Origin: a virus | Virus genome (UHGV): UHGV-0293859 | Length of the DNA stretch: 33,868 bases | Reading direction: 5' to 3' (one strand) | Shown here: one piece after another, positions 277-33,454 of the stretch | How the letters are laid out: the number at the start of each line of letters is the position of its first letter | Numbering within the stretch: the first letter of the stretch is position 1 | Position numbers and translations under genes: made by a program | The notes under the pieces: generated by a model | The model's database searches: none | Told to the model about the DNA's origin: nothing | Seen by the model: only the letters and a program-made list of their open reading frames with translations

Positions 277-1464
277 ATGGCAGGCATCATTAAACGCAAC
301 AACAAATGGGTGGCCGTCTTCCGCTCCCTGGACGGCAAAGAGCTTCGGAAAACCACCGGCATCGACGTGGTTCCCAAGGCGCTGCTTCCGGGAGCCAATA
401 AGAAATCGGTCATGTCCCAGAATGAAGCCCGGGCGCGGCTGGTGGCCCAAGAGATGGAGAAAGAAGCCCGTTACGGGGTTTTTGACCTGGACAAGGTGAA
501 GGCCATTGCCGGGGACCAGGCCGGCGTGCTGAAAGCCACCATGAACGGCATGACGGTGACGCGGTTCCTTTTTGACTGGCTGGACGGGAGGAAAAACAAG
601 AAGCGGGCCTATGAGCGGGACGGCATGGCCGTCCGCCGGCTTCTGGCGTTCCTGGGGGACCGGCGGAATATGCCGCTGGCCGCCCTGAATAAAGGGATGG
701 CGAAGGATTTTGTAGAAACGGAATTGGAGCGCGTTTCCGCCGGAACCGTCATCCGCTATGTGTCCACGCTGTCCACCGCGTTCAATGTCGCTGTAGACCG
801 CGAGATACTTCCCCGGAATCCGTTCCGGGGCGTCATGCCTTCCCGGGCGGACCACCAGGCGGAAAAGCAGCTGCGCGGCGCCTTCACCATGGAGGAAGTG
901 AACACCATCATTGAACGGTTCCCGGATGAATGGCCGGATCTGGTGCGGGTGTGCCTCTACACCGGAGGACAGCGCCTCGGAGACCTGGCGACGCTGAAAT
1001 GGGAGCAGATTGACCTGAAGAACTCCTTCCTGTTCATGACCACGCAGAAGAGCCGGCGCCGCATGAACAAGCCGATCATCCAGCCCTTGAAAGAGGTTCT
1101 GGAAAGGCGTCTGGTCAACCGGGTGAACGATTACGTGTTTCCCCTGGCCGCGCTTCGCCATGCCCATGCCGGCGGACGTTCCGACAAGCTTTCCACGGAG
1201 TTCACGACATTGTTGAAAACGTACGGAATCATCCGGGAGATGCCCGGGGAAGTGAGAGGCGACCGGCACCGGCTTTCGGAAAAGAGCTTCCACAGCCTGC
1301 GGGCGACCGCCGTGACCGTCCTGCGCCTGTCCGGGGTGTCCCCGGATTTGTGCCGCTTCATCGTCGGCCACGACTCCGAAGAGATTGAACGGGTGTATTT
1401 CCGCCCGGATTCGGCGGACGTCCAGGAGGCCATGAGCAAGATTGCCGTCGGACTGGCCCGTTAG
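277..1464 (+). CDS. int: Phage tyrosine integrase (site-specific recombinase)
   Basis: 395 aa; N-terminal arm-binding-like region, C-terminal catalytic region with HSLRATAVT...GHDSEEIERVYF (R..H..R..Y type motifs); ATG start; position at prophage edge. Confidence 0.9.
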   Translation: MAGIIKRNNKWVAVFRSLDGKELRKTTGIDVVPKALLPGANKKSVMSQNEARARLVAQEMEKEARYGVFDLDKVKAIAGDQAGVLKATMNGMTVTRFLFDWLDGRKNKKRAYERDGMAVRRLLAFLGDRRNMPLAALNKGMAKDFVETELERVSAGTVIRYVSTLSTAFNVAVDREILPRNPFRGVMPSRADHQAEKQLRGAFTMEEVNTIIERFPDEWPDLVRVCLYTGGQRLGDLATLKWEQIDLKNSFLFMTTQKSRRRMNKPIIQPLKEVLERRLVNRVNDYVFPLAALRHAHAGGRSDKLSTEFTTLLKTYGIIREMPGEVRGDRHRLSEKSFHSLRATAVTVLRLSGVSPDLCRFIVGHDSEEIERVYFRPDSADVQEAMSKIAVGLAR

Positions 1465-2204
1465 CCTCCTTCCCCGTGGAACCGGTAACGGTACAAGGCG
1501 TCCATGGCGCGGGCGCGCTCGGATTTGGGAATGTTCGTTGGGCGCGGGTTGCCGAAGGTGACCATCCAGAATTCGGCGTATTTTTTCGGCGTTACGGCGA
1601 TGCTGAACCAGTTCCATGCCGTCCACTTCCCTTCCCGGTTGAAGGGCGTCCAGGGTTCGTCAAGCCTGATCTGCTCCGGGGGAAAGAGACCCTGGATGGC
1701 CCGGCAGATGGTGAGGTCTTCCGGGGCGAGCGGGGGGATAGCGGCGCATTCCAGCGCTTCGGCGGCCATCCTGGCCGCCCGTCCGCTGATGGCGTAACAC
1801 GGCCCATAGGCGGAGCGTTCGGACGGGTGGCCGGGGTTCTGGTAGCCGGAGGCGTGCAACGCCAGCCCGTTGCGCTGCATGTCGAGGATCCAGCCGCCCG
1901 ACAACAGGAGCGTGTCGGAGTCGATTTTGACGATGACGTCTTCATCCTCCGCTTCCCCGGCCAGCGTGGAAATGATGCCCCGGACGCATTCCGGGCCGCG
2001 CAGGTTGCCGTTCCTTGTCCAGCCGGTTTGACAATACCTTGCCCCGGTTAACATAAGGACGGATCTGACGCGTTCAGGAAGCGGAGCGGCGCTGTCGTCC
2101 ACAACCGTAATGACAGCTTCAGGCAGAGCCGCGGCTGCGCATTGTACGCAAACTAGGGCTTCATCCGCGTCTCCGGCATAGGTGAATAGATAGATTCTGA
2201 TCAT
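1461..2204 (-). CDS. Putative GT-A fold glycosyltransferase (VVDDS and DSD/DxD motifs); possible lysogenic-conversion gene
   Basis: 247 aa; ITVVDDSAAP and VIVKIDSDTLLL resemble the DDxS and DxD motifs of GT2-like enzymes; lies between tail genes and int where gtr-type conversion genes sit in other prophages. Confidence 0.45.
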   Translation of the reverse strand: MIRIYLFTYAGDADEALVCVQCAAAALPEAVITVVDDSAAPLPERVRSVLMLTGARYCQTGWTRNGNLRGPECVRGIISTLAGEAEDEDVIVKIDSDTLLLSGGWILDMQRNGLALHASGYQNPGHPSERSAYGPCYAISGRAARMAAEALECAAIPPLAPEDLTICRAIQGLFPPEQIRLDEPWTPFNREGKWTAWNWFSIAVTPKKYAEFWMVTFGNPRPTNIPKSERARAMDALYRYRFHGEGG

Positions 2205-2212
2205 GGTGTTTG

Positions 2213-4357
2213 TTAAGCTGGTCCGTAGGGGTAGAAGGTTCCTCCGAAGACGGGTATCTGGATCATTCCCAGCGCGTATTGTGTCACCTGGTCGTCTTCG
2301 ATGTCGGCTATCTGGAAAGAATAGTCGAAATTGACGTCAGGCTTTTTCTCTCCGAGCCTGATCGGATAGACCGGTCCGGGAATGCCCGAGACGTCAACGC
2401 CCGTCAATTTGGCGTTCTTGTCAAAGTGGACGTTGAGCCATACTTCCCCGCTGGTTTGGGGGATCGTTACCCACGAGGAACCGGAGCCGCCCCCCTGCGG
2501 GTATTTGCCGAGCAGCGATCCGTTCAGGTAGAGCGCGCCGGGCTTCATCTGCGCCCCGGTGATGGCGCCCTCCGTATCTTTCTGCAAGCGCACTTGGAAA
2601 CCGTATTCCGGCGCGGGCGTGGATTCTCCCGTGGATTTGGTGATGTGCTGGCTGATGGTGGGGGATTCCGGCTTGGGGTCAAAGCCGTATTCCGTCGATT
2701 CCGGCGCGCCTTGCATGTTTTCCAGCGTGGAAGATGTGCGCGAGGTGGCATTCACGCGCTTCAATTCTACCCATTCTTCAATCCCTAGTTGTTCCGGCGC
2801 GCCGTAGGAAAGGGAAATCACGTTGGTTTGCAGGTCGCGGCTCACCGTCTGAATCATGGTGTTGATGTTCTGCCAAGCGGGGTTTCCTCCCAGCAGCGAG
2901 ACGCGCCGGCCAATGTATTGGCGCGTCTGCGCTTCGCCAAGCGCGACAAAGGAAATAGAGCCGTCCCAGGGCAATTCCTGCATGGATTCCCATACCGTTT
3001 TGGCAATGTCCCCATAGGGCACGCCTTCCGAGGGTTGGGGCGATTCCCCTTCTTCCGGCCCGTTGGAGGGCTGTTCCCCGTTGTAGATGCCGTCAATGGG
3101 GTAGCTTGAGGATTTTCGATCCATGGTGACGAGATCTACCGAGAATTCTTCCCAAAAGCAGGGCACGCCTTCCAGCGTTCCCACATTTTTGAATTTCTCC
3201 CTCCACTTCGGAGCCGCTCCTTCTGGGATGGCAAGACGCTGTTTTATCGTAGTATTACACCATTTTGGATGATAAGATTTAGTGTGAATTTGCCCGTCCG
3301 TCAATTCAAACTCGGTAGCGTCTTCTTTATAACCCTTCGGCTTGTCCTTCTCGTCCCCCTCCCAAGGCTTCCCCGTGATGGTCGGTTCTTTATCATAAGC
3401 CGCTATGGCTCCTACCTCTTTCATCCAGGGGAAGTGGTTGGACCAGAATTTTTCAATCATGTTGTTCTTATCAATTTTCCTCCCCGTCACTTTCATGCGC
3501 TGGTAGGACAGGCTGCCGGCCCGGGTGCCCTGCACCGGCTGCGGATCTTCTACCGGCTCCCCCGTAGAACTGTATTTAGAATAGTAGAAGTCTACTGACG
3601 TCCGGTAAACAATGGAGTGCGGCAAGGTCGGGTCCCCGTCCTCCGGGTATTTGGACAGGTAGGAGACGCGGTAGCCGTTGCTTCCGGTCGTTTCCGCGAC
3701 GATAGCCACGCAGGGCGGCACGAGGTCGCCCCGGGGGACCAGGGAAACATCCATGGACTTGACCGTTTCCGTCGGCTGCAAGGGAAGCGCAATGGGCGTC
3801 AGGGCGTCATAGTCCGTGATGATGAGCTTGGGGCGCGTTCCGCTGTAGTCGTAGTACGAGACCATCCGGGGCGACCAGCGGCGGATGGATTGAAGGAGGC
3901 TGCCCAGCGTATCGCAGGAGGCGTTCCACGGAATCAGCATCTTGTTGTCGCTGATACGCAGCTCGTAGTCCGCCGGGTGGTGTTTGGCGAGGTTCAGCAC
4001 CCGGGAGAGTGCGGAGGCAATGCTTATCTTGGGAATGATGCCGCCCCCTCCGCTGACTTTATTCCACATGGAAAAGACCGGCTTCCATTCGGAATCCAGC
4101 GCAAAGCAGTTGTCCAGCCAATACCAGGGATCGGAAAAGACGATTTTCCAGGCACGGGAAGAGCCGCTGTAGGTCTTTTCGATGCTGGAAACGAGGCCGG
4201 ATAGAATGGTGTTCCCGTTTTGGGAAATGGTGACAGTATCGAACTGTTGGAAGGGCAAGACCTCGCCCAAGGTGCGGACGGGATAAACCGCGGTGATGGC
4301 GGAGGAGGAAAAGCTTTGCTGGTCGTGGGTCAGGCTCGACGGCTTGAGGCCCAGCAA
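2213..4357 (-). CDS. Phage tail protein (distal tail/tip or fibre component), 714 aa, TTG start
   Basis: Large ORF downstream of tape measure in the late operon; no recognisable catalytic motif; start is TTG 15 codons after the upstream stop. Confidence 0.5.
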   Translation of the reverse strand: MLGLKPSSLTHDQQSFSSSAITAVYPVRTLGEVLPFQQFDTVTISQNGNTILSGLVSSIEKTYSGSSRAWKIVFSDPWYWLDNCFALDSEWKPVFSMWNKVSGGGGIIPKISIASALSRVLNLAKHHPADYELRISDNKMLIPWNASCDTLGSLLQSIRRWSPRMVSYYDYSGTRPKLIITDYDALTPIALPLQPTETVKSMDVSLVPRGDLVPPCVAIVAETTGSNGYRVSYLSKYPEDGDPTLPHSIVYRTSVDFYYSKYSSTGEPVEDPQPVQGTRAGSLSYQRMKVTGRKIDKNNMIEKFWSNHFPWMKEVGAIAAYDKEPTITGKPWEGDEKDKPKGYKEDATEFELTDGQIHTKSYHPKWCNTTIKQRLAIPEGAAPKWREKFKNVGTLEGVPCFWEEFSVDLVTMDRKSSSYPIDGIYNGEQPSNGPEEGESPQPSEGVPYGDIAKTVWESMQELPWDGSISFVALGEAQTRQYIGRRVSLLGGNPAWQNINTMIQTVSRDLQTNVISLSYGAPEQLGIEEWVELKRVNATSRTSSTLENMQGAPESTEYGFDPKPESPTISQHITKSTGESTPAPEYGFQVRLQKDTEGAITGAQMKPGALYLNGSLLGKYPQGGGSGSSWVTIPQTSGEVWLNVHFDKNAKLTGVDVSGIPGPVYPIRLGEKKPDVNFDYSFQIADIEDDQVTQYALGMIQIPVFGGTFYPYGPA

Positions 4358-4408
4358 GTCATTGATGGTGATGTCGTGGTTCCTGCTGCTTGTAAAATGG
4401 TTAGTGGT

Positions 4409-4897
4409 TTATTTCTTATCGGCGATCTTTTGGAGCAACGTCAGAACCTTCGCGAACCAGAAGCAGACGAGGCAGGAGAAAGCGCCTGATAACAAATAGA
4501 TGAAGGCTAGTGGAAACTGATGATGATAAAAATTGCTTAAAAATAATACAATACCAGCAATAATCGTCATTGCTCCCACTACTTGAAACATCCCCTCTAC
4601 TTTAATTTTTAGAGGCTCTTGCTCATTCGCCCAAGCAGGTTTTTCTTCTCTCTCATCTAAAATAAATTCAACAAAGCGTTTCTTTGATCTGCTCTCCGAT
4701 TCTTGTTCTTCTGCTTTTCTATTGGTGTTTTTGGTCAGATGATAAATCCTTCCAAAGGATAGCCACTCCTGACCTCCTTCAGGGCAAACAAGAGTTTCTG
4801 ACAAGATTTTCCCTTCCTTGTACAAGGCTTCAAGTTCTTCAAAAGAGTAGGGGCCCTCAGCATTGTTTGAGTTGGAAGCGACGTAATAATTAGCCAT
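4409..4897 (-). CDS. Low-GC moron: GYF-like (DUF4339-type) N-terminal domain plus two C-terminal transmembrane helices
   Basis: 162 aa; GPYSFEELEALYKEGKILSETLVCPEGGQEWLSF resembles the DUF4339/GYF_2 motif; two hydrophobic helices at C-terminus; strongly AT-rich relative to neighbours; sits immediately after the tape measure gene. Confidence 0.55.
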   Translation of the reverse strand: MANYYVASNSNNAEGPYSFEELEALYKEGKILSETLVCPEGGQEWLSFGRIYHLTKNTNRKAEEQESESRSKKRFVEFILDEREEKPAWANEQEPLKIKVEGMFQVVGAMTIIAGIVLFLSNFYHHQFPLAFIYLLSGAFSCLVCFWFAKVLTLLQKIADKK

Positions 4898-4943
4898 AGT
4901 GGTATGGTGCTATAAACCGGCGTTAGTGCAAGCCTAAAAGCTG

Positions 4944-7163
4944 TTAAAAGCCTCCGGCAAGCCTGTTTATCCCTGTTTGCAATCTTCCGTTGCCCTTCTG
5001 CACTATCTTCAAGATTTCCTCGAATTTAGCATCTACATATTTTTTCGTATCTGCTTGAATGGCATTTACATTGGCGGTCTGTGCTGTTGCTATGGTTTTC
5101 AAGAAATCCATCAATTTTTTCGTGTATTGTCCGCTTTCTATCAATGAGTTTTTCATAACGTCAAACACTTCCTGAAGCTCGCTGGGGTCGATTTCCGTAT
5201 CTTTGTCCGAAATGCTTTCCGCAAGGCGTTTCTTCCCTGCATTCAAAGCTTCGCGGGCAGCCGCAATCCGGGCGCGTTGCTGGGCGGTAGGATGCTCGGG
5301 TACGCCTTCAAGAGTAATGCCGCGGATCATCGCCTGCTGCCTCTCGGCGGTCTGCTTTTGAGCCTCCCTTTCGGTCCGTTCACGAGCCTTCTTTATTTTC
5401 TCTTCATTTCTTCGGGCTTCCTCTGCTTCTTCCCTGTCTCTTTGCATGTTAAATGATTTAACCTTTCCGGCGTCTATTTGATTTTGAATAGCGTCGATTT
5501 GTTCCATGTTTTTAATAGACGCTTCGGTCGAAGCCATCGCATCACCCAAAGATCCGGCTTTCTCCGTTAAATCATCAAACTGTTTTTTCGCGGCGTCCGT
5601 ATTCTTCTTAAATTCTTCTACTGCATCTGATGCTTGTTTGAAGCGACTATTGACATCTGTCCCTTGGCTATAGTCTAATTCAAGATTTACGCCGCCGGAT
5701 CTCAATGACTCCTGAAATTCCTTCAATTTCAATTGAAGAGCATTACCTTCTTCTTGGGCCAAATTACGTGATTCAACAAGCTGTTGCTCTCTTATTACTC
5801 TCCCTTCATACTCTTCAACTTCTGACGGAGTAAGCCAAGTTCTATTTTTTCGTAATTCCTCTATTCTTGATAAGTCGCTACTAATGCTATCAATAGTACG
5901 TTGAGCACGTTCCTGCTGCTGTAAAAGGCCAAGAATATTTTGAAGAGAAGGAAGGTTCCCCTGCTTGAACTGCATATCAAAAGCATGAGCTTCCGCAGCA
6001 TCTCGGGCTTTGACTGCCTCTGCAAGCTGTTTGCCAATATCCATATAATTAGCCTGCTCCACGCCTAAATCACGCTGTCTGATTTTCTGGTCCAGATTCT
6101 GATCAACCATCATCAAGCCGTAATCTCGCTGTCTCTTGGTGATTCTTCCTGCCTGGTAGTCATTCTCCAAGTTGACGCGGTCAAGTTCTGCCTGGCGTGT
6201 ATCAACGCCTTTCTGGCGGGCCGCTTCCTCACGTCTCAAGCGAATTTGTTTTTCAAGCTCTTCCGTCTGATATTCAAATTCCCGGGTAATGCCCTTTACA
6301 TAGTTTTGATACTCTTCATTAACGGTCTTGGTGCGTTCTTGCTGGTTGAATTCCTGCAAAGCCTGATAACTTGCCCGGATAGCCTGACGAGAAGATTCGG
6401 CAATCTCTTTGCTATGCTCCTTCATTTTTTTGGCGAGATCTGCCGACTTGTCTTCCGTTTTTCCCATCCATTCGTAAAGCTTCGCCCCGGCCAGAACGGC
6501 AAGCGACATCGCGCCGGCCAGACCTGCGCCGCCTCCGAAGCCCATCACCAGCCCCGGAATATTGTTCATGATGCCCCGGATGCCGTACTGCAAGTCATCG
6601 AAGAAGTAGGCAGCCTGCAAGGCCCCCTGACCCATGTTCTTCACGCTCCTGGTTGCCTGCTGGCTCCCCTTATCAAGTTGTTGAGCGGACTGGTTGAGAG
6701 CTCGGCTTTTTTCCGCCGCCTGCGCTTCCGCTCGCGCTGCTTTTTCCGCCGCCTGCGCTTCCCGTTCCTGCGCCCTGGTCAATGCGGAAATTCTTTTCTC
6801 CAGTTCCTGAATATTCTTCAGGGCTTTTAGACGGTCGGGGTGATTTTCCTGCTGCGTCGCCTTTTTCAGGGCTGCCTGATATTTTTCCAATTCAGACACA
6901 AGTTCATTTAAGGCCGCTTTTTCCCTTCGTCTGGATTGTTCGATGGCGTCCGCGGATTCCTGGGCTTTCTTCTGCCTCCGTTCTTCCGCCTGGGCTTCTT
7001 TTTCCAACGCCTTGGACTGGTCATCGGCATTGGTATTGGTATTTTGCCCCGAAGATGGCTTCCCGGCGTTCCTAAGGGATTCAATTTGCTTGCGGGCCTC
7101 TTCCACGCCCTTCGAGTCAAAGGATGATTTAAGGGTGATTTCGATTTCTTTCTTGGTGGCCAT
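4944..7163 (-). CDS. Tail tape measure protein
   Basis: 739 aa, long coiled-coil/charged segments, internal AEAQAAEK-type 33-bp tandem repeat (6711-6762), Gly-rich membrane-like segment; preceded by a small chaperone-like gene. Confidence 0.8.
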   Translation of the reverse strand: MATKKEIEITLKSSFDSKGVEEARKQIESLRNAGKPSSGQNTNTNADDQSKALEKEAQAEERRQKKAQESADAIEQSRRREKAALNELVSELEKYQAALKKATQQENHPDRLKALKNIQELEKRISALTRAQEREAQAAEKAARAEAQAAEKSRALNQSAQQLDKGSQQATRSVKNMGQGALQAAYFFDDLQYGIRGIMNNIPGLVMGFGGGAGLAGAMSLAVLAGAKLYEWMGKTEDKSADLAKKMKEHSKEIAESSRQAIRASYQALQEFNQQERTKTVNEEYQNYVKGITREFEYQTEELEKQIRLRREEAARQKGVDTRQAELDRVNLENDYQAGRITKRQRDYGLMMVDQNLDQKIRQRDLGVEQANYMDIGKQLAEAVKARDAAEAHAFDMQFKQGNLPSLQNILGLLQQQERAQRTIDSISSDLSRIEELRKNRTWLTPSEVEEYEGRVIREQQLVESRNLAQEEGNALQLKLKEFQESLRSGGVNLELDYSQGTDVNSRFKQASDAVEEFKKNTDAAKKQFDDLTEKAGSLGDAMASTEASIKNMEQIDAIQNQIDAGKVKSFNMQRDREEAEEARRNEEKIKKARERTEREAQKQTAERQQAMIRGITLEGVPEHPTAQQRARIAAAREALNAGKKRLAESISDKDTEIDPSELQEVFDVMKNSLIESGQYTKKLMDFLKTIATAQTANVNAIQADTKKYVDAKFEEILKIVQKGNGRLQTGINRLAGGF

Positions 7164-7181
7164 GGTGGTAGATGTGGAGGG

Positions 7182-7463
7182 TTATCGTTGAGGGCGGGCT
7201 TCTTCGATGACGAAAGCGGGCAGTTTCCCGGCGGTGAGGGCGTTGCGGGATTCTTCCACGCGTTTCTGCAAGGATTCCAGGAGCATCATATCCCGGATGA
7301 TGACGCCGAAGGCATGGGAGGGATCAACGCCGGCGGCTTGAGAGGCAGCAAAGACGCTTTCCTTCAATTCCTGCGCCGCCTGGTTCAGGTTCGGGTTCTT
7401 GCCGCACTCTTCGGCGAATTCAATGAAAAGCCGTTCTATTCCGTTTTGTTGTTGTTCGTTCAT
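7182..7463 (-). CDS. Putative tail assembly chaperone (position-based)
   Basis: 93 aa acidic protein immediately upstream of tape measure; no G-T frameshift extension detectable. Confidence 0.35.
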   Translation of the reverse strand: MNEQQQNGIERLFIEFAEECGKNPNLNQAAQELKESVFAASQAAGVDPSHAFGVIIRDMMLLESLQKRVEESRNALTAGKLPAFVIEEARPQR

Positions 7464-7477
7464 GATGGATTATTCTG

Positions 7478-8992
7478 TTAAGATGGGTATTCGGTGGAAG
7501 TGTAGCGGATGACGAGGGATAATCCGAACGTGCGCCCGGGAGCGTCCGCCGGCATGGGGTAGATGGCATTTCCGAGGCCGTCAAACGCCTGCGGATTGGC
7601 CAGCATGGCATGCTGCTCATAAATGCCGTTCTGGTTTTCCACGACCAGCTGCCAGTCCGAACGGATTTCCACGCCGGGAGAAAACGTCCATTTCGCGTTT
7701 CCGCCCTCTCCGGTGAAAACCGCCTCGCTGCTGGTCGCCAGAAGAGAGGCAGACCCGTTTTCCACCCGGTAAAGCGTTAACGTGCCGGAATTGGCGCTGG
7801 TGGGTTTCGTCGTGATGATTTCCTGCAGCGTCAGTCCCTTTCCTTCGGGGTTGCCTTCCGGGAAGTCCGGATAAACGTCCGAGGGAATAAACCTCCATGA
7901 GGAATAACTCATCGGATTATCCGAGTATTCCCCTCCGGGCGGGGGAAGCTGATGATTTCGGGTGACCAGTCCTGCCCTCAATACGCGGATTGTCTGTTTT
8001 AACCCGGAATCCGCCTGTGTCGCGGAAACGACGACGGAGCCGGCCGCTCCTTCATTGGGGGCCGCGGTTAACGTGAAGGACCCGTTATTTCCGTTCGTGA
8101 TATCGGAGATGACAACGGAAGAGCTGGGAGAATTGGGCGTCCAGTCAACGCTGACTTCCCCCGGGTCATAATAGGAAGTCACCTGGACCTGGTAGCTTCC
8201 GCCAATAACGGGAACCTGTACCTGGGTTGGAGCAAGGCTGAATGAGTAAGAGGGTTGAAGCTGACGAAATTCAACCTCAACAGCCTGTCCTGTTCCGTCC
8301 TGAATGACCTGGAGCGACATGGTCCTGTCCTGGTCTCCTTCATTGGCCGCGACGATAACCTTGAATGTCCCGTTGTTGCCGTTGACGATATCGGAAACGG
8401 TTAATCCTTCGGAAACGTCGGCAATCTGCCACCCCTGCCCTACCGGTCCAGGGCTGAACGACGATTCCACATTAATGGTGTATTCGCCTCCCTTGACGGG
8501 TACGTCGAAAGAAGAGGGCGTCACGCTGAATATCCAGTTGGAATTGTCCGGGGTCCGGTCGGTGACCGTCATGGTCAGCGTGACCAGCAGGCACAGATAG
8601 CCGTCTTCGGGAGACGGCGGAGGAACAAAGTTCTCCGTCTCAAACTGGTAGCCGGTGATGACGGCGGCAAAACGCCATTGAGGCTGGTCGGCGAATTGCA
8701 GGTACAGATACCCGTTCTGGTTGCTGGACAGCCACAACGCCAGGTTCTCCTGCCAGGAGGCCATATCCTGATAATCCGTGAACCAGCGGTAAAACGCGAT
8801 GGTGCGCTGCTCCACGGCGCTTCCCAGCCCCTGCGCGAACGCTCGGGGACCGTCTACCAGCGAAGTTTCAAATGCCTCCATGGATCCGCCGAAGCGGGGA
8901 GGCTCCGGCGTATCGTCCCAGAGGTTGAGCAGCAGTATCTGGTTGCCGGCGGCGGAAACGTAGCGCGCCGCGTAGGGGGCCTGGTAAGTCAT
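7478..8992 (-). CDS. Tail protein with two tandem Ig-like/BACON-like domains (putative major tail protein)
   Basis: 504 aa; two ~90-aa internal repeats (..GGEYTINVESSFSPGP..VSDIVNGNNGTFKVIVAANEGD.. and ..GGSYQVQVTSYYDPGE..ISDITNGNNGSFTLTAAPNEGA..); canonical position upstream of chaperone and tape measure. Confidence 0.5.
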   Translation of the reverse strand: MTYQAPYAARYVSAAGNQILLLNLWDDTPEPPRFGGSMEAFETSLVDGPRAFAQGLGSAVEQRTIAFYRWFTDYQDMASWQENLALWLSSNQNGYLYLQFADQPQWRFAAVITGYQFETENFVPPPSPEDGYLCLLVTLTMTVTDRTPDNSNWIFSVTPSSFDVPVKGGEYTINVESSFSPGPVGQGWQIADVSEGLTVSDIVNGNNGTFKVIVAANEGDQDRTMSLQVIQDGTGQAVEVEFRQLQPSYSFSLAPTQVQVPVIGGSYQVQVTSYYDPGEVSVDWTPNSPSSSVVISDITNGNNGSFTLTAAPNEGAAGSVVVSATQADSGLKQTIRVLRAGLVTRNHQLPPPGGEYSDNPMSYSSWRFIPSDVYPDFPEGNPEGKGLTLQEIITTKPTSANSGTLTLYRVENGSASLLATSSEAVFTGEGGNAKWTFSPGVEIRSDWQLVVENQNGIYEQHAMLANPQAFDGLGNAIYPMPADAPGRTFGLSLVIRYTSTEYPS

Positions 8993-8998
8993 GGGCGG

Positions 8999-9529
8999 TT
9001 ACTGGTTGATATAGTCCTTCACCCCTTCCGCAATGGCTTCGGCAATGCGGCCGGGATGGTCCTTCAAAATAGAGGCGTTTTCAGGATTGGTGATGAAGCC
9101 GCATTCGCACAGCACCCACGGGCAGCGGGTCTTTTTCAGGACGGCGAGGCCCGGGCGCGACTGCACGGTGTTGGCCCGTCCGGGCAGCAACCGGGAAAGA
9201 GGTTCGGCAATACAGGCGGCCAGACGGCTTCCCTGAACAGACCCAGGATAAAAGCATACATGAGCGCCACGAGCCTGGGGATTGTCGGCCGAATCGCAAT
9301 GCAATGAAATTCCGAAGTCGTATCCGTCCGCATTGGCAACCTTGATGGTGGCGTTCAGGTCTTCCGTATTGCCTTTGTCCGGAAAGTCAAGAACATGGAC
9401 GGTATGTCCCATATCCTTCAACTGCGCAAAAAGATGGCGTGCTATCACACATGCCACGTCGTGCTCTTCCAGCCCGTTTCCACGAGCTCCGGTTCCTTTG
9501 GCGTGTCCGATGTCTAAAGCGATATTCAT
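8999..9529 (-). CDS. N-acetylmuramoyl-L-alanine amidase (Amidase_3-type endolysin)
   Basis: 176 aa; MNIALDIGHAKG...GISLHCDSADN...CECGFITN pattern typical of MurNAc-LAA zinc amidases. Confidence 0.85.
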   Translation of the reverse strand: MNIALDIGHAKGTGARGNGLEEHDVACVIARHLFAQLKDMGHTVHVLDFPDKGNTEDLNATIKVANADGYDFGISLHCDSADNPQARGAHVCFYPGSVQGSRLAACIAEPLSRLLPGRANTVQSRPGLAVLKKTRCPWVLCECGFITNPENASILKDHPGRIAEAIAEGVKDYINQ

Positions 9530-9711
9530 TTGTTCAGGTATTGGTTAATAAGATGTTCCGGCAAGTCATACTCCACGTAGGTGCTGTTGAGATGCCATTC
9601 CGCGTGTTGGGCTTTGTAGGCTGTACGCTGCTTCCTGCTGTGCAGCATGTGCATCTCCTGCTTGCGTCCGGGAGTTTCAATGACGAGTAAATAAAGGTAT
9701 CGTTCCGGCAT
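9526..9711 (-). CDS. Hypothetical small protein in lysis cassette
   Basis: 61-aa ORF only. Confidence 0.25.
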   Translation of the reverse strand: MPERYLYLLVIETPGRKQEMHMLHSRKQRTAYKAQHAEWHLNSTYVEYDLPEHLINQYLNK

Positions 9712-9778
9712 GGTTAATTAAGTTATAAACTATTGGCTATGAGATAAAGGGAACTTGTAAGAAAAACTTTACAGTTGG

Positions 9779-9892
9779 TCAGCGTTCCGCACATCGGAGG
9801 AACACAAGGCTAGCAATGGGGAAGCAGAACGCGGCAATGCCCGCCGCCGTGTCTCCGCAAGCGGCAAAAACGCCGGCCATCACGCACCCCAT
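9779..9892 (-). CDS. Unannotated small hydrophobic peptide, candidate o-spanin-like lipoprotein (MGCVMAGVFAAC-G...), alternative GTG start at 9931 overlapping previous stop
   Basis: Manually translated; signal-peptide-like hydrophobic stretch followed by Cys; directly follows the TM plus coiled-coil gene; short and not Pro-rich, so weak. Confidence 0.2.
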   Translation of the reverse strand: MGCVMAGVFAACGDTAAGIAAFCFPIASLVFLRCAER

Positions 9893-9927
9893 CAGCGGCA
9901 AAAGAACGGAAGGATTCAGCAGCTTAT

Positions 9928-10179
9928 TCACTTTTCCAGTTTCTTTTCTATGTTTTCGATTCGGACGGCAAGCAGTTGAATCGCCTTGGCCGTCTCGACC
10001 TGCGCCTGCGTCTGCATGGACATCAAGTCAAGAATCCTGTCATTATGGTGTCCCATCACCTCCCCGATGTACCAGCAGGCAGCACCACACGTGACCAGCG
10101 ACAGCATGACGCAGGCCACGAGGGGCGACGTTTTCGCAAAATCCAGGAAATGAGCCGGCACTTCAGAGAGTTTGCACAT
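9928..10179 (-). CDS. Single-TM protein with C-terminal coiled coil (holin or i-spanin candidate)
   Basis: Start taken at MCKLSEV (10179); TM PLVACVMLSLVTCGAACWYIG followed by QAQVETAKAIQLLAVRIENIEKKLEK. Confidence 0.4.
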   Translation of the reverse strand: MCKLSEVPAHFLDFAKTSPLVACVMLSLVTCGAACWYIGEVMGHHNDRILDLMSMQTQAQVETAKAIQLLAVRIENIEKKLEK

Positions 10180-10183
10180 GGCC

Positions 10184-10507
10184 TTATTTCTTGGAGGGGA
10201 TGACCTGCACGACGGGCGGAACATCCGTAACAGGCTGGGCCTGACTGTAGGAGATATGTCCCGGTTCCAGCACCAGGCAGGATCCGTCCTTGCATACCAC
10301 CGTCTTTTCCGGCGTCACGTCCACGGAATGACCGCAGCCACCCAGCAGAGCGGAAGCCGCATAGGCAGCACCTGCTAGGACTACCCACAAAAGGCGTTCC
10401 CACCACTTCAGGCCGGTTTTAGTTTTGCTTTTTTCGTAGGCATCTTTCATGCCCTGCTTCCCCGCCTCAAGGGCGGCCTGCTTTTGCTCGTCACTTAATT
10501 TACTCAT
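10184..10507 (-). CDS. Membrane protein, N-in single TM plus Cys-containing periplasmic tail (holin/antiholin/spanin candidate)
   Basis: Start taken at MSKLSDEQ (10507, 8-nt overlap with upstream gene); TM LLWVVLAGAAYAASALLGGCG. Confidence 0.4.
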   Translation of the reverse strand: MSKLSDEQKQAALEAGKQGMKDAYEKSKTKTGLKWWERLLWVVLAGAAYAASALLGGCGHSVDVTPEKTVVCKDGSCLVLEPGHISYSQAQPVTDVPPVVQVIPSKK

Positions 10508-10907
10508 GGTTTTGTTTTGTGAAGTATTTGAAAAAATCCACGGCGGCAGGGTCGGTAACAATGAACTCCGGGTAATCACGGGAAGTGAACACCCTCCGCC
10601 CGCCCTGCGGATTGACGGCCTCAACGGTCAGTTCCACGGCTTCCTCCGTCCGCATCGGGTCATCCTCCTCCGGAGCGTAAAACTCTTTCAGCCGTGCCCA
10701 CACCTGCACCGCCTGCCAGTCCTCACCCATGCCCACCAGCGCGGCAACTACGGCGGCCATTGCCGGGGCATGGTCCGCTGGTATCTCGTCCTGCGTATAG
10801 CGCGCCGGAGGTCTATATCCGCCCTTGTCCTGATAAATGGGCGTCAGAGTGAATTCCTGCCAGTTGCCGGGCCGGGGGAACTGAATCTGTATTTCTGCGT
10901 TGTTCAT
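10500..10907 (-). CDS. Hypothetical phage protein
   Basis: 135-aa ORF, acidic, between fibre and lysis genes. Confidence 0.35.
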
Positions 10908-12850
10908 TCTATAGGTACGTTAATATCTTCAAAATCAGCTGTTTCTTCGGTTTTAACAGCATTGACAGCCAAAGCTTCCAGAGCGTAATAAACCGGATTG
11001 ACGTTGCCGGGCTGGTAGTTGGTGCGCTCCGCCGCCCCAACAAACACGCTGACAGATCCACCGGAAATTCCCGGAATGTCTGTTACAATCGTGGAAAATC
11101 CCGTGCCCGTTTCAAAGTTGGTCACGCCGCGCACCGCGGCAATCTTCCAAAGTTGCTGACTGCTTCCCCCGCCTGTCAGCAAATACAATGAGCCATAGGC
11201 GTCCCCATAATCCCCGGCATTGTACGATCGGGGGGCATATTGATGATAAATGACTTTATTGACAATATAGGGAATTGGCTCGTTTTGCGTCGCCGGGATA
11301 AAGCTGGTTGTGGTCTTTACCATCCACTTCCGCGCGGTCTCGGCTGCGTATATTTCCCGTACGCGGACGACATACCCGCCGCGCGCCGCATCGCGCTCAT
11401 TGTCAAACGTAATATCCAGAATTTCGCCGGTATTATAGGCCAGTTCATTACCGGGAATGATGCTGTAAGAATCCAGCGTTAAATCTTTCCGCACCGTCCT
11501 TGACCCCCGCCCAATGCCCACGGTCAATTTTCCCGCGGACGTTAATTGCCAGGGGACGGCAAAACCTGCGAAACTGGAATAATTCCACTGGCCTTTAGGA
11601 CCTTCAAAGTAATGAACAATCGTGCTGTGCGTATTCGCAGGAACGCTCACCCGCGCGTACAGCCCAGCGACAAGAACAGAAGTTTGCGCCGTCCCGGTGG
11701 CTGTAATACTGCCCGTATTAAGGTAAAAATGGAGGGAAAAAATGTCTGTCACTCCGGCCATGCCCGCCGCGTACAGGCGATTAACCACCCCCGTGGCTGT
11801 CGGTGCCCCCACGGCAAGCGGGATGTTGATCCCGCCATTGGCGTTGACGGTGCTTGAAAACGTGGACGCCCCCGCGCAGTTGAAGCTGGCGCCCTGGGAA
11901 ATATTCAGGATGCCGGATTCTACCATGAATGTCCCTCGCAGCCAGCCGCCCGATTGGAGATCAACGGACTGATAAAACCGGGTGATTCCGTAAATCTGGT
12001 TCAGGGTCCCGGCGCTTCCGCTTCCGTCCGGGTTGTTGACGACCAGAGGCCCGTTGATAGTAGCCGATTCAGCGGTCAGGGCTCCCCCGATGTTGACGTC
12101 GCCGACGTTGGACGTCAGCGTCCCGGGCTCTCCCTTTTCCCCTTGTAGTCCCTGGGGTCCTGCCGGACCTTCCGGGCCCTGGGGGCCCTCCGGGCCTTGA
12201 GGCCCCGCCGGTCCTGTATCTCCCTTCGGTCCCTGCTCCCCGGTTTCGCCCTGCGGCCCGCGTTCCCCGGTTTCGCCGCGTGGACCTTGCGGCCCTTCGG
12301 GGCCGGTTTCTCCACGTTCACCCTGCGGGCCTGACGGTCCCTGAGGACCAACATCCCCGCGGGGAATCGTGAAATTGAGCAGATAGGATCCCACTTCGGA
12401 CCCCTTGACGGCTTCCGCGTTGGCGGGCGTCCCCGGTTCCCCGGTGGTGACCTGACCCACGGACAGATTAAAATTCTCGGCGTACTTTTTGGCCTGCTCC
12501 GCGTACCAGGCGGCGCTGGACGCGTTGTCAAGCATGACCTGCACGCAGCCGCTTCCTTCCGGCAGCTGCACGACGACCGCGCCCGCCACGGCCTGCTGTT
12601 CGTCCGGCAAGTCAGGCGTTACACGACCCGCAGAAACAAAGCATCCGTAGAGCAGCGGTCTTTCCTCGTTTCCGTCGTCCATGAAGACGTCGTAGGACCA
12701 CCTGCCCGCAGGCACCGAAGCCCAGGAAAGCACGCCGTTACCCTCATCGTCGCGGGAAAAGCCGAACTCGGCGACGCCTGTCTTGAGACGGACAGCGCCG
12801 CGGAGGGTGACGCCGCTCATATCGACGGGATCCCCCTGAAAATCTACCAC
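10904..12850 (-). CDS. Collagen-like (Gly-X-Y)n repeat tail fibre/receptor-binding protein
   Basis: 648 aa; ~80 residues of uninterrupted [28 protein letters not shown]... at 12115-12360; typical of prophage tail fibres. Confidence 0.7.
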
Positions 12851-12964
12851 ACGGACGACCAGCGACTGGTTCAGCCCCGTGACGGTCCGGATATCGTATT
12901 TGCCTGCCTGCTGCCTGGGAAAAAAGAGGATGCGGGGGCGCAGCGCGCCCCCTGGTGAAACGCG

Positions 12965-13522: not shown

Positions 13523-13629
13523 CTTGATGCCGTCGGGGAGGAAAATCGCCAGAACGCCGGTAATCTGCGGCGTAACATTGCGGTTTGTGAATGTGGGATC
13601 GTATGTAGTAGCCCTGGTGCTGGAAATGG

Positions 13630-13827
13630 TTAGTAGATGATGGATGCCTTGCCGTCGGCTTCCAGTTTATCGGCGAGTTCTTTTGTAGCACGGATGCGCG
13701 CCCCTTTCAAGAAGGTTGAGCGCCCTATCCTCACTTCTTTGGCGAGAATGAGAATGTTCGTGTCGATGACGGCGGCCTGCTCCGTCTTCTTCTCCGGTTC
13801 GGTGTTTGATGCAGTTGCTTTGCTCAT
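13630..13827 (-). CDS. Hypothetical small protein
   Basis: 65-aa ORF. Confidence 0.3.
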   Translation of the reverse strand: MSKATASNTEPEKKTEQAAVIDTNILILAKEVRIGRSTFLKGARIRATKELADKLEADGKASIIY

Positions 13828-20831: not shown

Positions 20832-20884
20832 CCTGCGATTGTTTACATATCGTCATATATTGATATCTTGATATGTTGTCAACC

Positions 20885-26207: not shown

Positions 26208-26596
26208 TCCCCCTCCTTTCCGTCCGCCGCCATATCCACGCCAAACGCCGCGACGTATTTCTTGGCCTCTTGCGGGTCTTGCAAATAGCCCAGCAGGAAA
26301 CGCAAGGCATCTTCCACCGTGGCTTTTCGCATTTGGAGATTGTTGTAAAGCTGCTGAACGGCAGCGCCCTTGGTGTTGCCGTAGGCAATAAACCCATAGT
26401 CATCATACAGGTTGCACAATTCCTGGAGCATATCGACATTCCCGATAAAAACGGAATATTGCGGCCTGCACCAAGATCGATAGGTTCCGATACGGTGCTT
26501 GTTGGCCTTGGCCCAGGCATCCACCTCCGGGGGCAATCCCACGGCGTAGGGTTTCTGTGCAAGGTCACGGGGCGGCAGGTCAAAGAGGTATTTCAT
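26204..26596 (-). CDS. Hypothetical protein
   Basis: Start taken at MKYLFDL (26596). Confidence 0.3.
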   Translation of the reverse strand: MKYLFDLPPRDLAQKPYAVGLPPEVDAWAKANKHRIGTYRSWCRPQYSVFIGNVDMLQELCNLYDDYGFIAYGNTKGAAVQQLYNNLQMRKATVEDALRFLLGYLQDPQEAKKYVAAFGVDMAADGKEGE

Positions 26597-26934
26597 GATT
26601 CTCCCTCCTTTCTCGGCTCCCAGTTGTCGGAAACATAATGGCTTCGTGAGCACGTATCGCATATGTATGGAAACTCGTAATCCCCATTCAGGCAGGTTTC
26701 GCAACGGCGGCGTTGCCACGCCCGACATGCGGTCCGCTTTTCTCGGAGTCGTTCAACTAAGAGGCCAAGGGCATGTTGATCACATATGATTCTTCTTTCG
26801 GACTTGGACATATCATCATAATATTTACGCCAAGCAAGTATTGTATATTCACGAATACTATCTATTCTAAGTTGGAGTGCCAGTTTTGCGCGTCCATATT
26901 CGTAAAAAGCTTGTTGTTCAGACGTCAGTTTCAT
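26593..26934 (-). CDS. Hypothetical protein with C-terminal Cys cluster (CETCLNGD...CDTC)
   Basis: 113-aa ORF following an extremely AT-rich upstream tract. Confidence 0.3.
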   Translation of the reverse strand: MKLTSEQQAFYEYGRAKLALQLRIDSIREYTILAWRKYYDDMSKSERRIICDQHALGLLVERLREKRTACRAWQRRRCETCLNGDYEFPYICDTCSRSHYVSDNWEPRKEGES

Positions 26935-27028: not shown

Positions 27029-27400
27029 TCATTGCTGGACTCCTTTCTGCTCAATCTCCCAGGGCCATTGTTTAATCTCGTCCACATCGTAGGGAAGTGC
27101 ATTCCCATATACATCCTGAAGATATATTTTCCCCCGGTCTACGTTTGTATAAAGTACTGTATGTGTATCATCACTAAAACGAACCATGACGTTATCACCC
27201 TGCCCTAACCGCATGATGGGGGGAAACTTGGCTACCAGTTCAGACCAATCCTCCCAACACTGGGTTTTTCCTAATAGGCCCGATATAGGAGAGGTGCATA
27301 ACCCACACGTGCAACAAATATGGTCGCACTCTTCCTCTCCTACCATGAACCTTACATACTCCGGCATTTTCCCGCATAGCGGGCATTTAGGCGTTTTCAT
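27029..27400 (-). CDS. Zinc-finger-like hypothetical protein (CPLCG...CDHICCTCGLC)
   Basis: Start taken at MKTPKCPLCG (27400). Confidence 0.3.
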   Translation of the reverse strand: MKTPKCPLCGKMPEYVRFMVGEEECDHICCTCGLCTSPISGLLGKTQCWEDWSELVAKFPPIMRLGQGDNVMVRFSDDTHTVLYTNVDRGKIYLQDVYGNALPYDVDEIKQWPWEIEQKGVQQ

Positions 27401-27782
27401 CGTCCCTCCTTTCAAACACGATTTCCACCTTGCCGGCGCGTCCCAGGTCGTGAATCCGCTCAATCCCGGCGCAATCCAGCGTCCGGTCGTCAATCCCCAG
27501 GGCCTTGCAAGCTCCATCCAGATACGCCTTGCAGCGCGCCAGGCAATTATCCGCGTCCGGCTTCGGCCCCTTGAAAAACCAGACCACCCGGTAATGCGTC
27601 GGTTGCATCCTCCGTCCATTCAGGGCTTCATAAGTCCTGCCCCAGGCTATATTCCGGGCGCGGCTCTTGGCAGCCGTCTTTTTGTACCCGGCCACAATGG
27701 CCCCCCTCTGCGTGAGAGGGGCCTTGGCATTCGGAGACAGGCAGCGCGGCGTGTGGGGCAAAGTAATGGTCAGCGTGGTCAT
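27387..27782 (-). CDS. rusA: RusA-like Holliday junction resolvase
   Basis: Start at MTTLTITLPHTP (27782); LPHTPRCLSPNAKAP...GYKKTAAKS and C-terminal DADNCLARCKAYLDGACKALGIDDRTLD resemble RusA PPS.N and DxxN...K..lDal...DD motifs. Confidence 0.6.
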   Translation of the reverse strand: MTTLTITLPHTPRCLSPNAKAPLTQRGAIVAGYKKTAAKSRARNIAWGRTYEALNGRRMQPTHYRVVWFFKGPKPDADNCLARCKAYLDGACKALGIDDRTLDCAGIERIHDLGRAGKVEIVFERRDDENA

Positions 27783-32354: not shown

Positions 32355-32437
32355 TGTTCAACGTCCATCTAAATTTGATATGATAAGCATCAAAAATACG
32401 ATAATGCCGCCTATAAGAATTAGAAACACGCCATCAT

Positions 32438-32770
32438 TCATAACTCGTTATTATTTTTAACTTTTGTCCTGGTGATTCTCGTCGTTCCTGACACGATGAT
32501 TTGTCCTCCGTCCGGTTTATAAATCACATACCCATATATTGGAATATCTCCCCTCGATCCCATCCTGAACGCCTCAACACAGTTTGCATATCCCGTTGTA
32601 AAAACAACATCGGGAATGCCGTTCTGTTCAATTTTAAATTCCCATGTTGGTGTCTCTTTTTTTAGGGGTTTTTCCTGATTATCGGCTTGTTTAACAGGTT
32701 GAGGCTCGGAACCCTGATCGCAACCTGAAAGAACAAGCCCGGACAAGACGAGGGCGAACAGAGCTTTCAC
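32438..32770 (-). CDS. Lipoprotein (signal peptide plus lipobox LSGC) in low-GC accessory island; superinfection-exclusion candidate
   Basis: MKALFALVLSGLVLSGC...; AT-rich codon usage unlike the rest of the prophage. Confidence 0.55.
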   Translation of the reverse strand: MKALFALVLSGLVLSGCDQGSEPQPVKQADNQEKPLKKETPTWEFKIEQNGIPDVVFTTGYANCVEAFRMGSRGDIPIYGYVIYKPDGGQIIVSGTTRITRTKVKNNNEL

Positions 32771-33009
32771 TTCTTCACCTCCTTCTGTTCGGTTTTCTTA
32801 AAAGGTGGTTCACCACCTACAGGCAAAAAAACTCGCTTCTTAACAATGCGTTTTGTTTTAGGTGGTTCACCACCTGCGAGCAAAAAAACTACTTGCCCAG
32901 AAACAGATCTTTGTTCTTTTCGTGCAATCAGTTTTATCTGTTCAAATAAGTCAATAGGGAGGTTAATTGTTATTTGCTTTTTCTCGTATTTCTCTGGCGA
33001 TGTTCTCAT
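32767..33009 (-). CDS. Ribbon-helix-helix (Arc/CopG-like) DNA-binding protein with repeat-encoded C-terminal tail
   Basis: KKQITINLPIDLFEQIKLIARKEQRSVSGQVVFLL (beta-alpha-alpha); tail AGGEPPKTK...VGGEPPFKK encoded by the 57-bp-period DNA repeat. Confidence 0.45.
   Translation of the reverse strand: MRTSPEKYEKKQITINLPIDLFEQIKLIARKEQRSVSGQVVFLLAGGEPPKTKRIVKKRVFLPVGGEPPFKKTEQKEVKK
32802..32874. repeat. Two copies of AGGTGGTTCACCACCT-N-GCAAAAAAACT (57-bp period); third related perfect palindrome GGTGGTTAACCACC at 33194-33207
   Basis: Read directly: 32802-32817, 32859-32874, 33194-33207. Confidence 0.6.
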
Positions 33010-33454
33010 AATCTTCGGGTGTAAGAATTACATTTTGAGTTTGTTGAACCAAATAAGCGGTAATGATTTCAGTCATGGTCATATTCAGCTCTTTTGCTCT
33101 CTTTTGAAATTTTCGGAAGAGGACGATTGGTATCCATACTGAAATCTGTTTTTTGTCTATCTTCCGTTGACTTGGCATGTGCTCACCATAATCGGTGGTT
33201 AACCACCAGTCAATACTATTTTTCATTTTTCTACATTTTTTTTCATCATAAATCATACCTGAGCTCTTCACAATTTTTTTCCCTTCATTAGTATTAAGGG
33301 TGTAATGAAGATAATTAGGTATACAGATCTCGACATGGATTCCTAAGTCATCTTTGATGGAGGAACGGGAAAACGAAGAGATTGACGAGTTCATTTCTTT
33401 TTCTCCTCCTTTTGAGTGATGTTCCTCAAGATCCTTTTCGTGGTTCTCCGGCAA
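32963..33454 (-). CDS. Protein with C-terminal RHH domain paralogous to the adjacent RHH (KKQISVWIPIVLFRKFQKRAKE vs KKQITINLPIDLFEQIKLIARKE)
   Basis: 163-aa ORF (ATG at 33394 also plausible); low GC. Confidence 0.4.
   Translation of the reverse strand: MPENHEKDLEEHHSKGGEKEMNSSISSFSRSSIKDDLGIHVEICIPNYLHYTLNTNEGKKIVKSSGMIYDEKKCRKMKNSIDWWLTTDYGEHMPSQRKIDKKQISVWIPIVLFRKFQKRAKELNMTMTEIITAYLVQQTQNVILTPEDYENIAREIREKANNN

Follow-up and report, generated by a model that had tools for sequence, protein, structure and literature searches.

The genome UHGV-0293859 (33,868 nucleotides (nt); the whole of this stretch is called the window) is, judging by its sequence, an Akkermansia prophage, and between its tape-measure-like gene and its baseplate-hub-like gene lies a small gene, GYF-2TM, for a protein with an N-terminal GYF domain and two predicted transmembrane (TM) helices. 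We conclude that GYF-2TM is very probably a conserved accessory gene that is autonomous and encodes a cytoplasmic GYF adaptor tethered to the membrane. By analogy with known exclusion proteins, the function that we tentatively prefer is that its product may exclude infecting phages, or abort their infection, from a site in the inner membrane, which we regard as possible rather than probable. In the literature searched, the combination of a minimal GYF-linker-hairpin protein, carriage by phages and a satellite-like element and a lasting link to a swappable tape-measure C-terminus is undescribed.

The interval 4358-4940, which a first-pass annotation made from the sequence alone had singled out, consists of the GYF-2TM open reading frame (ORF) and its spacers of 51 bp downstream and 46 bp upstream (Table 1). 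The encoded protein of 162 amino acids (aa) is made up of a GYF_2/DUF4339 domain, a charged disordered linker and a two-helix membrane hairpin. The GYF/DUF4339-like domain proposed at first pass is borne out, and the protein is a bona fide member of Pfam GYF_2 (PF14237; E=1.1e-10, 41.6 bits over residues 4-51 with a curated gathering cut-off of 25.8 bits), a profile matched by 27/27 family members tested. In an AlphaFold2 model built on 27 homologues, residues 1-55 have predicted local distance difference test (pLDDT) values of 81-91, and the strands at residues 3-7, 13-18 and 36-39 and the helix at residues 19-28 describe a GYF fold. The top Foldseek matches of this model in the PDB are all GYF domains at probability 1.00 (Smy2 3k3v, GIGYF2 7rup, GltJ 7z3c), the closest folds being those of human GIGYF1/2, yeast Smy2 and bacterial (Myxococcus) GltJ; a sequence search of the PDB returned chance-level matches only. 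Y5, G15, P16, Y17, W45 and F48 are invariant in the family.

The two TM helices of the first-pass annotation likewise stand, with Kyte-Doolittle maxima of 2.17 (aa 102-120) and 2.08 (aa 130-148) and AlphaFold2 helices at residues 100-123 and 128-161; residues 66-97 are disordered in the model. Averaged over 64 family members, lysine plus arginine residues number 3.6 in the C-terminal flank and 0.3 in the inter-helix loop, and the protein has no N-terminal signal peptide. This charge pattern and the lack of a signal peptide argue for an N-in/C-in topology with a cytoplasmic GYF domain, i.e. the protein is predicted to form an inner-membrane hairpin with both ends in the cytoplasm and a periplasmic exposure of 5-9 residues.

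The ORF is a real gene under purifying selection. The ratio of nonsynonymous to synonymous polymorphism (pN/pS) is 0.24 in the GYF domain, 0.09 in TM helix 2 (TM2) together with the C-terminus (0.09-0.2 for TM2), ~0.4 in TM helix 1 (TM1) and 0.8-1.0 in the loop. Positive selection on the loop was considered and rejected, given that its pN/pS is neutral-like and not above 1 and that only 7 codons are involved. Indels in the linker give rise to the length range of the family (139-232 aa). TM1 occurs in at least four sequence variants that are exchanged by within-gene recombination, a process that shuffles the linker and the TM1-loop region, and the loop itself appears as HHQFP, TADDGQQA, MSESFNQPS, NNVEEKQTE or NTGPGHAA.

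Homology searches identified 68 window-type proteins and 23 proteins of a second, DTMo-type, all of them exclusively from Akkermansia or from gut Caudoviricetes assemblies; a scan of genome contigs in a collection with one genome per species gave two GYF-2TM loci. In ~35 related loci the gene adjoins the 3' end of the tape-measure gene, and these loci fall into four arrangements (Table 1), which differ in gene order and in the orientation of GYF-2TM. Between arrangement A and arrangements B and C the hub proteins are only ~27% and the tape-measure proteins ~34% identical, which argues that the association of GYF-2TM with the tape measure is old. All relatives with the set of hub, 247-aa and tape-measure genes, i.e. 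the window type, DTMo-2021a, Chambord and Chantilly, have kept GYF-2TM. These comparisons indicate that the gene is old and long conserved beside the tape-measure gene, and they contradict the recent acquisition put forward at first pass: homologues at the tape-measure 3' end are an invariant part of the related tail modules.

With 40.7% GC and a GC content at third codon positions (GC3) of 42%, GYF-2TM stands out from the whole window (55.7%) and from the flanking genes (57-62% GC, GC3 69-75%), and in this respect it can be likened to clear cargo such as the Hachiman genes of locus L004 (30-32% GC). The gene is thus AT-rich, as first noticed; the low-GC block, however, also covers ~1.5 kb of the tape-measure gene, running from the GYF stop codon to tape-measure codon 246 and leaving the first 245 codons with normal composition. 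Between positions 4402 and 6430 the window has no nucleotide similarity to Akkermansia phage DTMo-2021a, whereas either flank is 82-84% identical; the breakpoint lies at 4402, and the sequence of the downstream spacer is conserved between the two. The corresponding slot in DTMo-2021a holds another tape-measure C-terminus that is AT-richer still (35.5% GC, GC3 20%) and a different GYF-2TM gene (135 aa, ~18% identical to the window protein), and the hub proteins are 86% identical despite this exchanged ~2-kb cassette. Compared in this way, the tape-measure C-terminal part and GYF-2TM form one low-GC cassette that is exchanged jointly. Such a joint swap of a tape-measure C-terminus and a membrane-protein gene is an unusual pattern.

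All relatives examined, Chambord included, show the low-GC cassette pattern, and since low GC is common to the cassette across the lineage it is not the mark of a recent insertion of GYF-2TM. It is therefore very improbable that the gene is, as originally proposed, a recently acquired AT-rich moron placed in an intact tail module and working like HK97 gp15. Low GC, a membrane protein and a position in the tail region are what such a moron would have, but the same slot is occupied in all related phages, even across the divergent hub lineages, the low-GC block takes in 1.5 kb of the tape-measure gene lineage-wide, and we detected neither a sequence relation to gp15/YebO nor a flanking promoter or terminator. 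Moreover, in contrast to a moron as defined for HK97 gene 15, GYF-2TM is not missing from otherwise similar phages, being absent only in phage Moulinsart among the loci examined.

The gene also occurs in settings other than the tail module. In type B (Chambord-type) prophages it is on the strand opposite to the late genes, at the prophage end opposite the integrase, and in one of these, L025, its outer neighbor is a HicB/MqsA-like antitoxin gene. Locus L037 has two GYF genes beside a HicA/MqsA-like toxin-antitoxin pair, after the endolysin gene and in an accessory region ~5 kb from the closest tape-measure-sized gene. An element in L044 (2932-9362) carries an integrase gene, an Sf6-like small terminase gene, a GYF-2TM gene, helix-turn-helix regulator genes and a Toprim primase gene without any tail genes; its GYF-2TM gene lies between the small terminase gene and the regulator genes, and its layout resembles that of a phage satellite. 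From this distribution GYF-2TM has the look of an accessory unit complete in itself, not of a component of the tail. Three loci have a tandem pair of differing GYF-2TM genes after the tape measure (L034 2554-3446, L035 4734-5626, L036 1637-2490), in which one copy is DTMo-type and the other is distantly related (28-30% identical) to the window protein. Tandem paralogues, intragenic recombination and a near-neutral loop next to a constrained TM2 are suggestive of conflict-like evolution.

The 46-bp spacer upstream of GYF-2TM contains a conserved 14-nt motif, TTTT-N4-TTGCA(C/G), located ~30 nt (18-31 nt) upstream of the start codon. It is found once per locus in the 27 loci carrying it and nowhere else in ~40 loci, the window likewise holding a single match, and it is present in the window-type cassette of type A and in type B, in co-oriented and convergent genes alike; the DTMo-type cassette is without it. 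Its retention between lineages with only ~40% protein identity is unexpected for unconstrained non-coding DNA. Type B loci and L044 have, 16-17 nt after the motif, an AT-rich -10-like hexamer that ends ~6 nt before the ATG. Motif and hexamer together suggest a promoter whose leader is very short or lacking, although by E. coli sigma-70 rules the match is weak. A reading of the TTGCA motif as a sigma-54 element was ruled out by inspection, the GG-to-GC spacing being wrong. In L044 four direct GTTTACA repeats stand just upstream of the promoter-like element (~4866-4918). A scan of positions 2000-10000 for the sigma-70-type promoters and terminators that the first-pass annotation had proposed to look for found none in either spacer of GYF-2TM, Verrucomicrobiota promoter rules being outside the scan; the only three promoter-like sites in this region, fewer than in shuffled sequence, were all inside the AT-rich ORF. 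Rfam gave nothing on 4200-5100. In the convergent relatives hairpin terminators separate GYF-2TM from the tape-measure gene.

We suggest that transcription of GYF-2TM probably starts at the element upstream of it, which could allow the gene to be expressed while the prophage is repressed, as inferred from the opposite-strand end position in the Chambord type and from the conserved motif. The predicted hairpin in the inner membrane would hold the GYF domain, which binds proteins, at the inner face of the membrane by a charged and flexible tether. In the version that we favor, the conserved TM2 might dock on itself or on a conserved inner-membrane component of the host that is used in DNA entry and in this way disturb the conduit built by an incoming tape-measure protein, while the GYF domain would hold a cytoplasmic partner. 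The linkage to the variable tape-measure C-terminus is consistent with cognate pairing; just as well, it could have come about by historical accident, the gene happening to sit where the late operon ends.

Several observations weigh against this proposal. The protein exposes almost no surface in the periplasm where it could encounter an incoming tail. All members of three phage lineages carry the gene, which is not the presence/absence pattern of a typical moron, and Moulinsart, which lacks it, does have a tape-measure gene, albeit in a different, unrelated tail module. In the window GYF-2TM is co-oriented with the late genes, has short spacers and is without a recognizable sigma-70 promoter or terminator, and may simply be a late gene. 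No known exclusion or defense family matches the protein: neither the window protein nor its DTMo-type paralogue has a match in PADLOC-DB v2, NCBIfam gave no informative match, and the sole real match in a BFVD fold search is an uncharacterized family member, with no characterized viral relative. Finally, the GYF core and TM2 are 40-45% identical between lineages compared to ~34% for the tape measure, which argues against direct recognition of the fast-evolving tape-measure end, and L022 and L023 combine an L011-type hairpin with a window-type tape-measure end.

A late gene could encode a lytic-cycle helper, i.e. a membrane protein needed by the phage itself that docks or chaperones the hydrophobic tape-measure protein or the tail tip at the membrane, or that tunes lysis timing in the manner of a holin or antiholin. 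The orientation and the 46- and 51-bp spacers without a terminator in the window and Chantilly types would suit this explanation, as would the presence of the gene in all members of the three lineages, always adjoining the tape measure, its co-inheritance with the tape-measure C-terminal cassette and the formally holin-like character of a small 2-TM protein. We nevertheless consider it unlikely, given that the gene lies opposite to the late genes in Chambord-type prophages, also occurs in the satellite-like element without tail genes and, in L037, in an accessory region away from any tape-measure-sized gene, exists as tandem duplicates and is dispensed with by Moulinsart. Moreover, a better-placed lysis cassette is found beside the endolysin gene: positions 9779-10624, directly upstream of that gene and amid tail genes, encode what looks like a holin and spanin-like set, so that the GYF protein is not needed to complete a lysis cassette. 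With this cassette adjoining the endolysin gene and GYF-2TM 4 kb from it, a holin was rejected as the principal interpretation. PHROGs gave no lysis match for GYF-2TM, only phrog_16400 at E=0.011, the function of which is not known.

With regard to inner-membrane exclusion, the partner of GYF-2TM can be considered in two ways. The protein could belong to an unrecognized family of inner-membrane immunity factors of phages and satellites, each paired with a variable tape-measure C-terminus, in which the hairpin neutralizes the cognate conduit. This pairing would be analogous to that of an immunity gene with a polymorphic toxin tip, lysogens would be protected and the producing cell shielded, and the GYF domain would catch the tip of the tape measure as it emerges, or a Pro-rich phage protein. 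We regard such a family of immunity factors as improbable. Support for coupling to the tape measure comes from adjacency and a single clear case of a jointly swapped cassette. Co-variation at fine scale between the TM1-loop region and the tape-measure C-terminus was sought within the window-type cassette and not found, L022 and L023 breaking the pairing, and as a consequence the idea of a cognate pair rests only on the coarse swap and adjacency. Because the GYF core and TM2 are conserved and the TM1-loop type is uncoupled from the tape-measure C-terminal type, the comparisons make it more likely that GYF-2TM acts via a conserved partner (itself, or a membrane or cytoplasmic protein of the host) than by reading the variable tape-measure end.

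Alternatively, GYF-2TM could be sensor and effector of abortive infection in a single protein, in which the GYF domain recognizes a Pro-rich segment of an invader and the hairpin oligomerizes via TM2 and depolarizes the membrane. Defense effectors that disrupt membranes are commonly built in this way, with a sensor domain on a flexible tether joined to a small TM module, the strongest constraint falls on TM2, in which small residues abound (SGAFSC), and toxin-antitoxin and defense genes occur as neighbors. In addition, 8/27 members have a weak, sub-threshold similarity to a TRADD-N-associated 2-TM module (E=0.002), these phages have collagen-like, Pro-rich tail fibers, and a bacterial GYF domain binds a Pro-rich sequence (PMC11135422). 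Pro-rich stretches in the window are found in the collagen-like fiber and in a 339-aa early protein. Against this, PADLOC gave no match, the Pfam matches of the hairpin in the 27 members are weak and scattered across unrelated TM families, for which reason we judge them probably compositional, and the resident prophage's own collagen-like fiber would trigger the effector. On balance this explanation appears rather doubtful.

The adaptor could also serve lysogenic conversion, in a role that has nothing to do with phages, by recruiting a host cytoplasmic protein to the membrane and altering envelope or stress physiology in the gut. The combination of a GYF domain and a membrane module is widespread, enriched in Planctomycetes-Verrucomicrobia and serves to recruit partners to the membrane (PMC11135422), conservation of the GYF core and of TM2 suggests that the host partner is conserved too, and a similar protein, P0184, is encoded in ordinary chromosomal surroundings. 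Furthermore, fosmid SMG 25, which has many Akkermansia-like genes and a prophage region predicted by PhiSpy, carries a DUF4339 gene of 201 aa two genes away from stlA, a membrane salt-tolerance gene (PMC3861447, Table 1); this is another GYF_2 gene in a mobile accessory region of Akkermansia. The literature searched on DUF4339/GYF_2 does not report a phage or defense role, the Akkermansia-related paper being concerned with the neighboring gene stlA. We think conversion unlikely to be the main function, as it leaves the adjacency to the tape measure, the joint cassette swap and the tandem paralogues unexplained.

Table 1. GYF-2TM, its neighborhood in the window and its arrangements in related loci
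Feature	Position	Strand	Remarks
GYF-2TM coding sequence	4409..4897	minus	ATG start, 162 aa; sole ORF in interval 4358-4940
GYF_2 domain, predicted cytoplasmic	4745..4888 (aa 4-51)	minus	Pfam, AlphaFold2 model, Foldseek
K/E-rich charged linker, disordered	4598..4732 (aa 56-100)	minus	pLDDT 39-50; 35.6% GC, lowest of the gene
TM helix 1	4529..4594 (aa 102-123)	minus	Hydropathy 2.17; variable, mosaic
Periplasmic loop, short, hypervariable	4511..4528 (aa 124-129)	minus	YHHQFP; few positive charges
TM helix 2	4433..4510 (aa 130-155)	minus	Best-conserved part, FIYLLSGAFSCLxCFWxAKV; columns I133-L155 (near-)invariant
Downstream spacer before hub-like gene	4358..4408	minus	Part of conserved hub-gene block; no terminator-like site
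Conserved upstream motif TTTTAGGCTTGCAC	4926..4939	minus	In 46-bp spacer; candidate promoter or regulatory element
Tape-measure-like gene, 739 aa	4944..7163	minus	Weak PHROG 167 match (E~1e-3); annotation of Chambord homologue
Tape-measure-like gene, variable C-terminal two-thirds	4944..6428 (aa 246-739)	minus	45.2% GC, GC3 45%
Tape-measure-like gene, conserved N-terminal part	6429..7163	minus	55% GC; Gly-rich hydrophobic segment
Baseplate-hub-like gene, 714 aa	2213..4357	minus	Foldseek; directly downstream of GYF-2TM
247-aa gene	1461..2204	minus	Without family match
Integrase gene	277..1464	plus	
Endolysin gene	8999..9529	minus	
2-TM protein, 50 aa	9779..9931	minus	Candidate lysis cassette
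TM and coiled-coil protein	9928..10224	minus	Candidate lysis cassette
TM/lipobox protein (LLGGC)	within 10184..10624	minus	Candidate lysis cassette
Collagen-like tail fiber gene	10904..12850	minus	
Arrangement A, window-type cassette			Tape-measure, GYF, hub, 247-aa gene; window, L004-7, L011-23
Arrangement A, DTMo-type cassette			Order as window-type, tandem GYF-2TM pair in some; DTMo-2021a, L034-36
Arrangement B			Hub, 247-aa, tape-measure, convergent GYF as last prophage gene; Chambord, L008, L024-31, L043
Arrangement C			As B, GYF co-oriented; Chantilly, L040

The window is ~84% identical at the nucleotide level to DTMo-2021a across most of its length. Its morphogenesis genes, among them the terminase, portal, protease and major head genes, are all on the minus strand, where the endolysin gene is followed by a 504-aa gene, a 93-aa gene, the 739-aa tape-measure-like gene, GYF-2TM, the 714-aa gene and the 247-aa gene. 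The 739-aa protein has a long coiled coil and a Gly-rich hydrophobic segment, as expected of a tape measure, and for the homologue in Chambord the annotation, based on HHpred, reads 'tail length tape measure protein'. The AlphaFold2 model of the 714-aa protein is weak (pLDDT 54), and because of this low confidence its assignment as a hub is tentative; the top Foldseek matches are all tail hub proteins (Mu gp44 1wru/9ki1_G, MuSo2 3cdd, Neisseria 3d37 and contractile injection system/VgrG proteins). The first-pass placement of GYF-2TM right after the tape measure and before a distal tail gene therefore holds, 'distal tail gene' being a fair description.

The neighborhood is itself variable. Alignment to the L015 and DTMo-2021a proteins defines, in the N-terminal part of the tape measure, a 126-aa coiled-coil insertion at codons 29-154 (6702-7079, minus strand), which is missing from DTMo-2021a and from L015 (98% identical, 613 aa); the tape-measure-like proteins of the group range from 613 to 887 aa, which would imply differing tail lengths among near-identical phages. 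The hub-like and 247-aa genes are invariably paired, and in the window type this pair lies downstream of the tape measure, in the Chambord and Chantilly types upstream, i.e. the module has been transposed within the tail region. The slot at the prophage end after the 247-aa gene is empty in the window, where this gene abuts the integrase gene at 1461-1464. In relatives the slot holds defense cargo of very low GC: Hachiman (HamA and a DEAD helicase, 30-32% GC), GAPS4, AbiH or Vsr/HNH/cytosine methylase (L004-L007 ~11950-15110, with L006 at 11794-14912; L036 6931-7950; L034 6578-9066). Elsewhere in the window, low-GC islands (35-44% GC) at 26500-27000 and 32200-33400 may be accessory or regulatory regions in the early or lysogeny part of the prophage; Pfam gave zero matches for the island ORFs 26593..26934, 27029..27619, 32438..32770 and 32963..33454. 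ARAGORN predicts a tRNA-Arg (anticodon CCT) at 20764-20837 on the minus strand, between the large terminase and portal genes, overlapping the GTG start assigned mechanically to the portal ORF.

Knowledge of the phages of Akkermansia muciniphila, a gut symbiont of importance, is very limited. The GYF-2TM family, which ranks with the accessory genes that Akkermansia temperate phages retain most consistently, is a concrete candidate for the resistance of lysogens to related phages. If the proposed role is true, it would be the first function for the GYF and membrane-module architecture in a mobile-element setting, and a functional pairing with the tape measure, should there be one, would be directly relevant to the passage of long-tailed phages across the inner membrane. 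If GYF-2TM proves to be an ordinary late gene, it would be of local interest only.

GYF-2TM can be likened to prophage membrane exclusion proteins by analogy only. In phage T5 the llp gene adjoins the receptor-binding gene pb5, the two are exchanged together, and llp has independent transcription that runs in the opposite direction; its product, a lipoprotein of the outer membrane, blocks FhuA, the receptor. Such a linkage of an exclusion gene to the virion gene that it counteracts would be paralleled here and recalls the convergent layout of the Chambord type, whereas GYF-2TM encodes a predicted inner-membrane hairpin and is linked to a tape-measure gene. The inner-membrane exclusion proteins HK97 gp15, TP-J34 Ltp and P22 SieA block DNA entry, and escape from them maps to tape-measure or ejection proteins (PMC3594210, PMC10883804).

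HK97 gp15 belongs to the YebO family, its gene lies upstream of the tape measure and is absent from the sister phage HK022 (PMC3594210), and exclusion by gp15, which blocks DNA entry, is dependent on the incoming phage's tail region (PMC3594210, PMC10883804). As is predicted for the GYF-2TM product, gp15 is a small inner-membrane protein of a prophage, and its gene, too, is among tail genes beside the tape measure. The resemblance seen at first pass is thus real in position and goes no further: GYF-2TM is outside the gp15/YebO family, no match to which was found in Pfam, PHROGs or NCBIfam, gp15 is without a GYF domain, and its gene has a recognized promoter and terminator, whereas the Akkermansia gene is downstream of the tape measure, present in all relatives and endowed with a bulky cytoplasmic domain. 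P22 SieA (162-164 aa) is an inner-membrane protein, as the GYF-2TM product is predicted to be, is expressed by the prophage, has no signal sequence, blocks DNA passage and exists as sequence types that are <30% identical (PMC10883804). This diversity is comparable to that of the two cassette types described here, which are ~18% identical. In contrast to GYF-2TM, SieA has three predicted TM helices and no soluble domain and acts on the ejection proteins of short-tailed phages, to which its gene is unlinked, and we detected no similarity between the two proteins.

In architecture the likeness is to bacterial GYF domains, which are typically N-terminal, cytoplasmic and followed by a membrane module, and in particular to that of Myxococcus GltJ, which binds a Pro-rich segment of a coiled-coil protein (PMC11135422). 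In GltJ, and by prediction in GYF-2TM, a cytoplasmic GYF domain is tethered to an inner-membrane anchor. GltJ, however, is a large protein of a motility machine with a zinc ribbon and a periplasmic domain, whereas the phage protein is reduced to a minimum of GYF domain, linker and hairpin and is carried on mobile elements.

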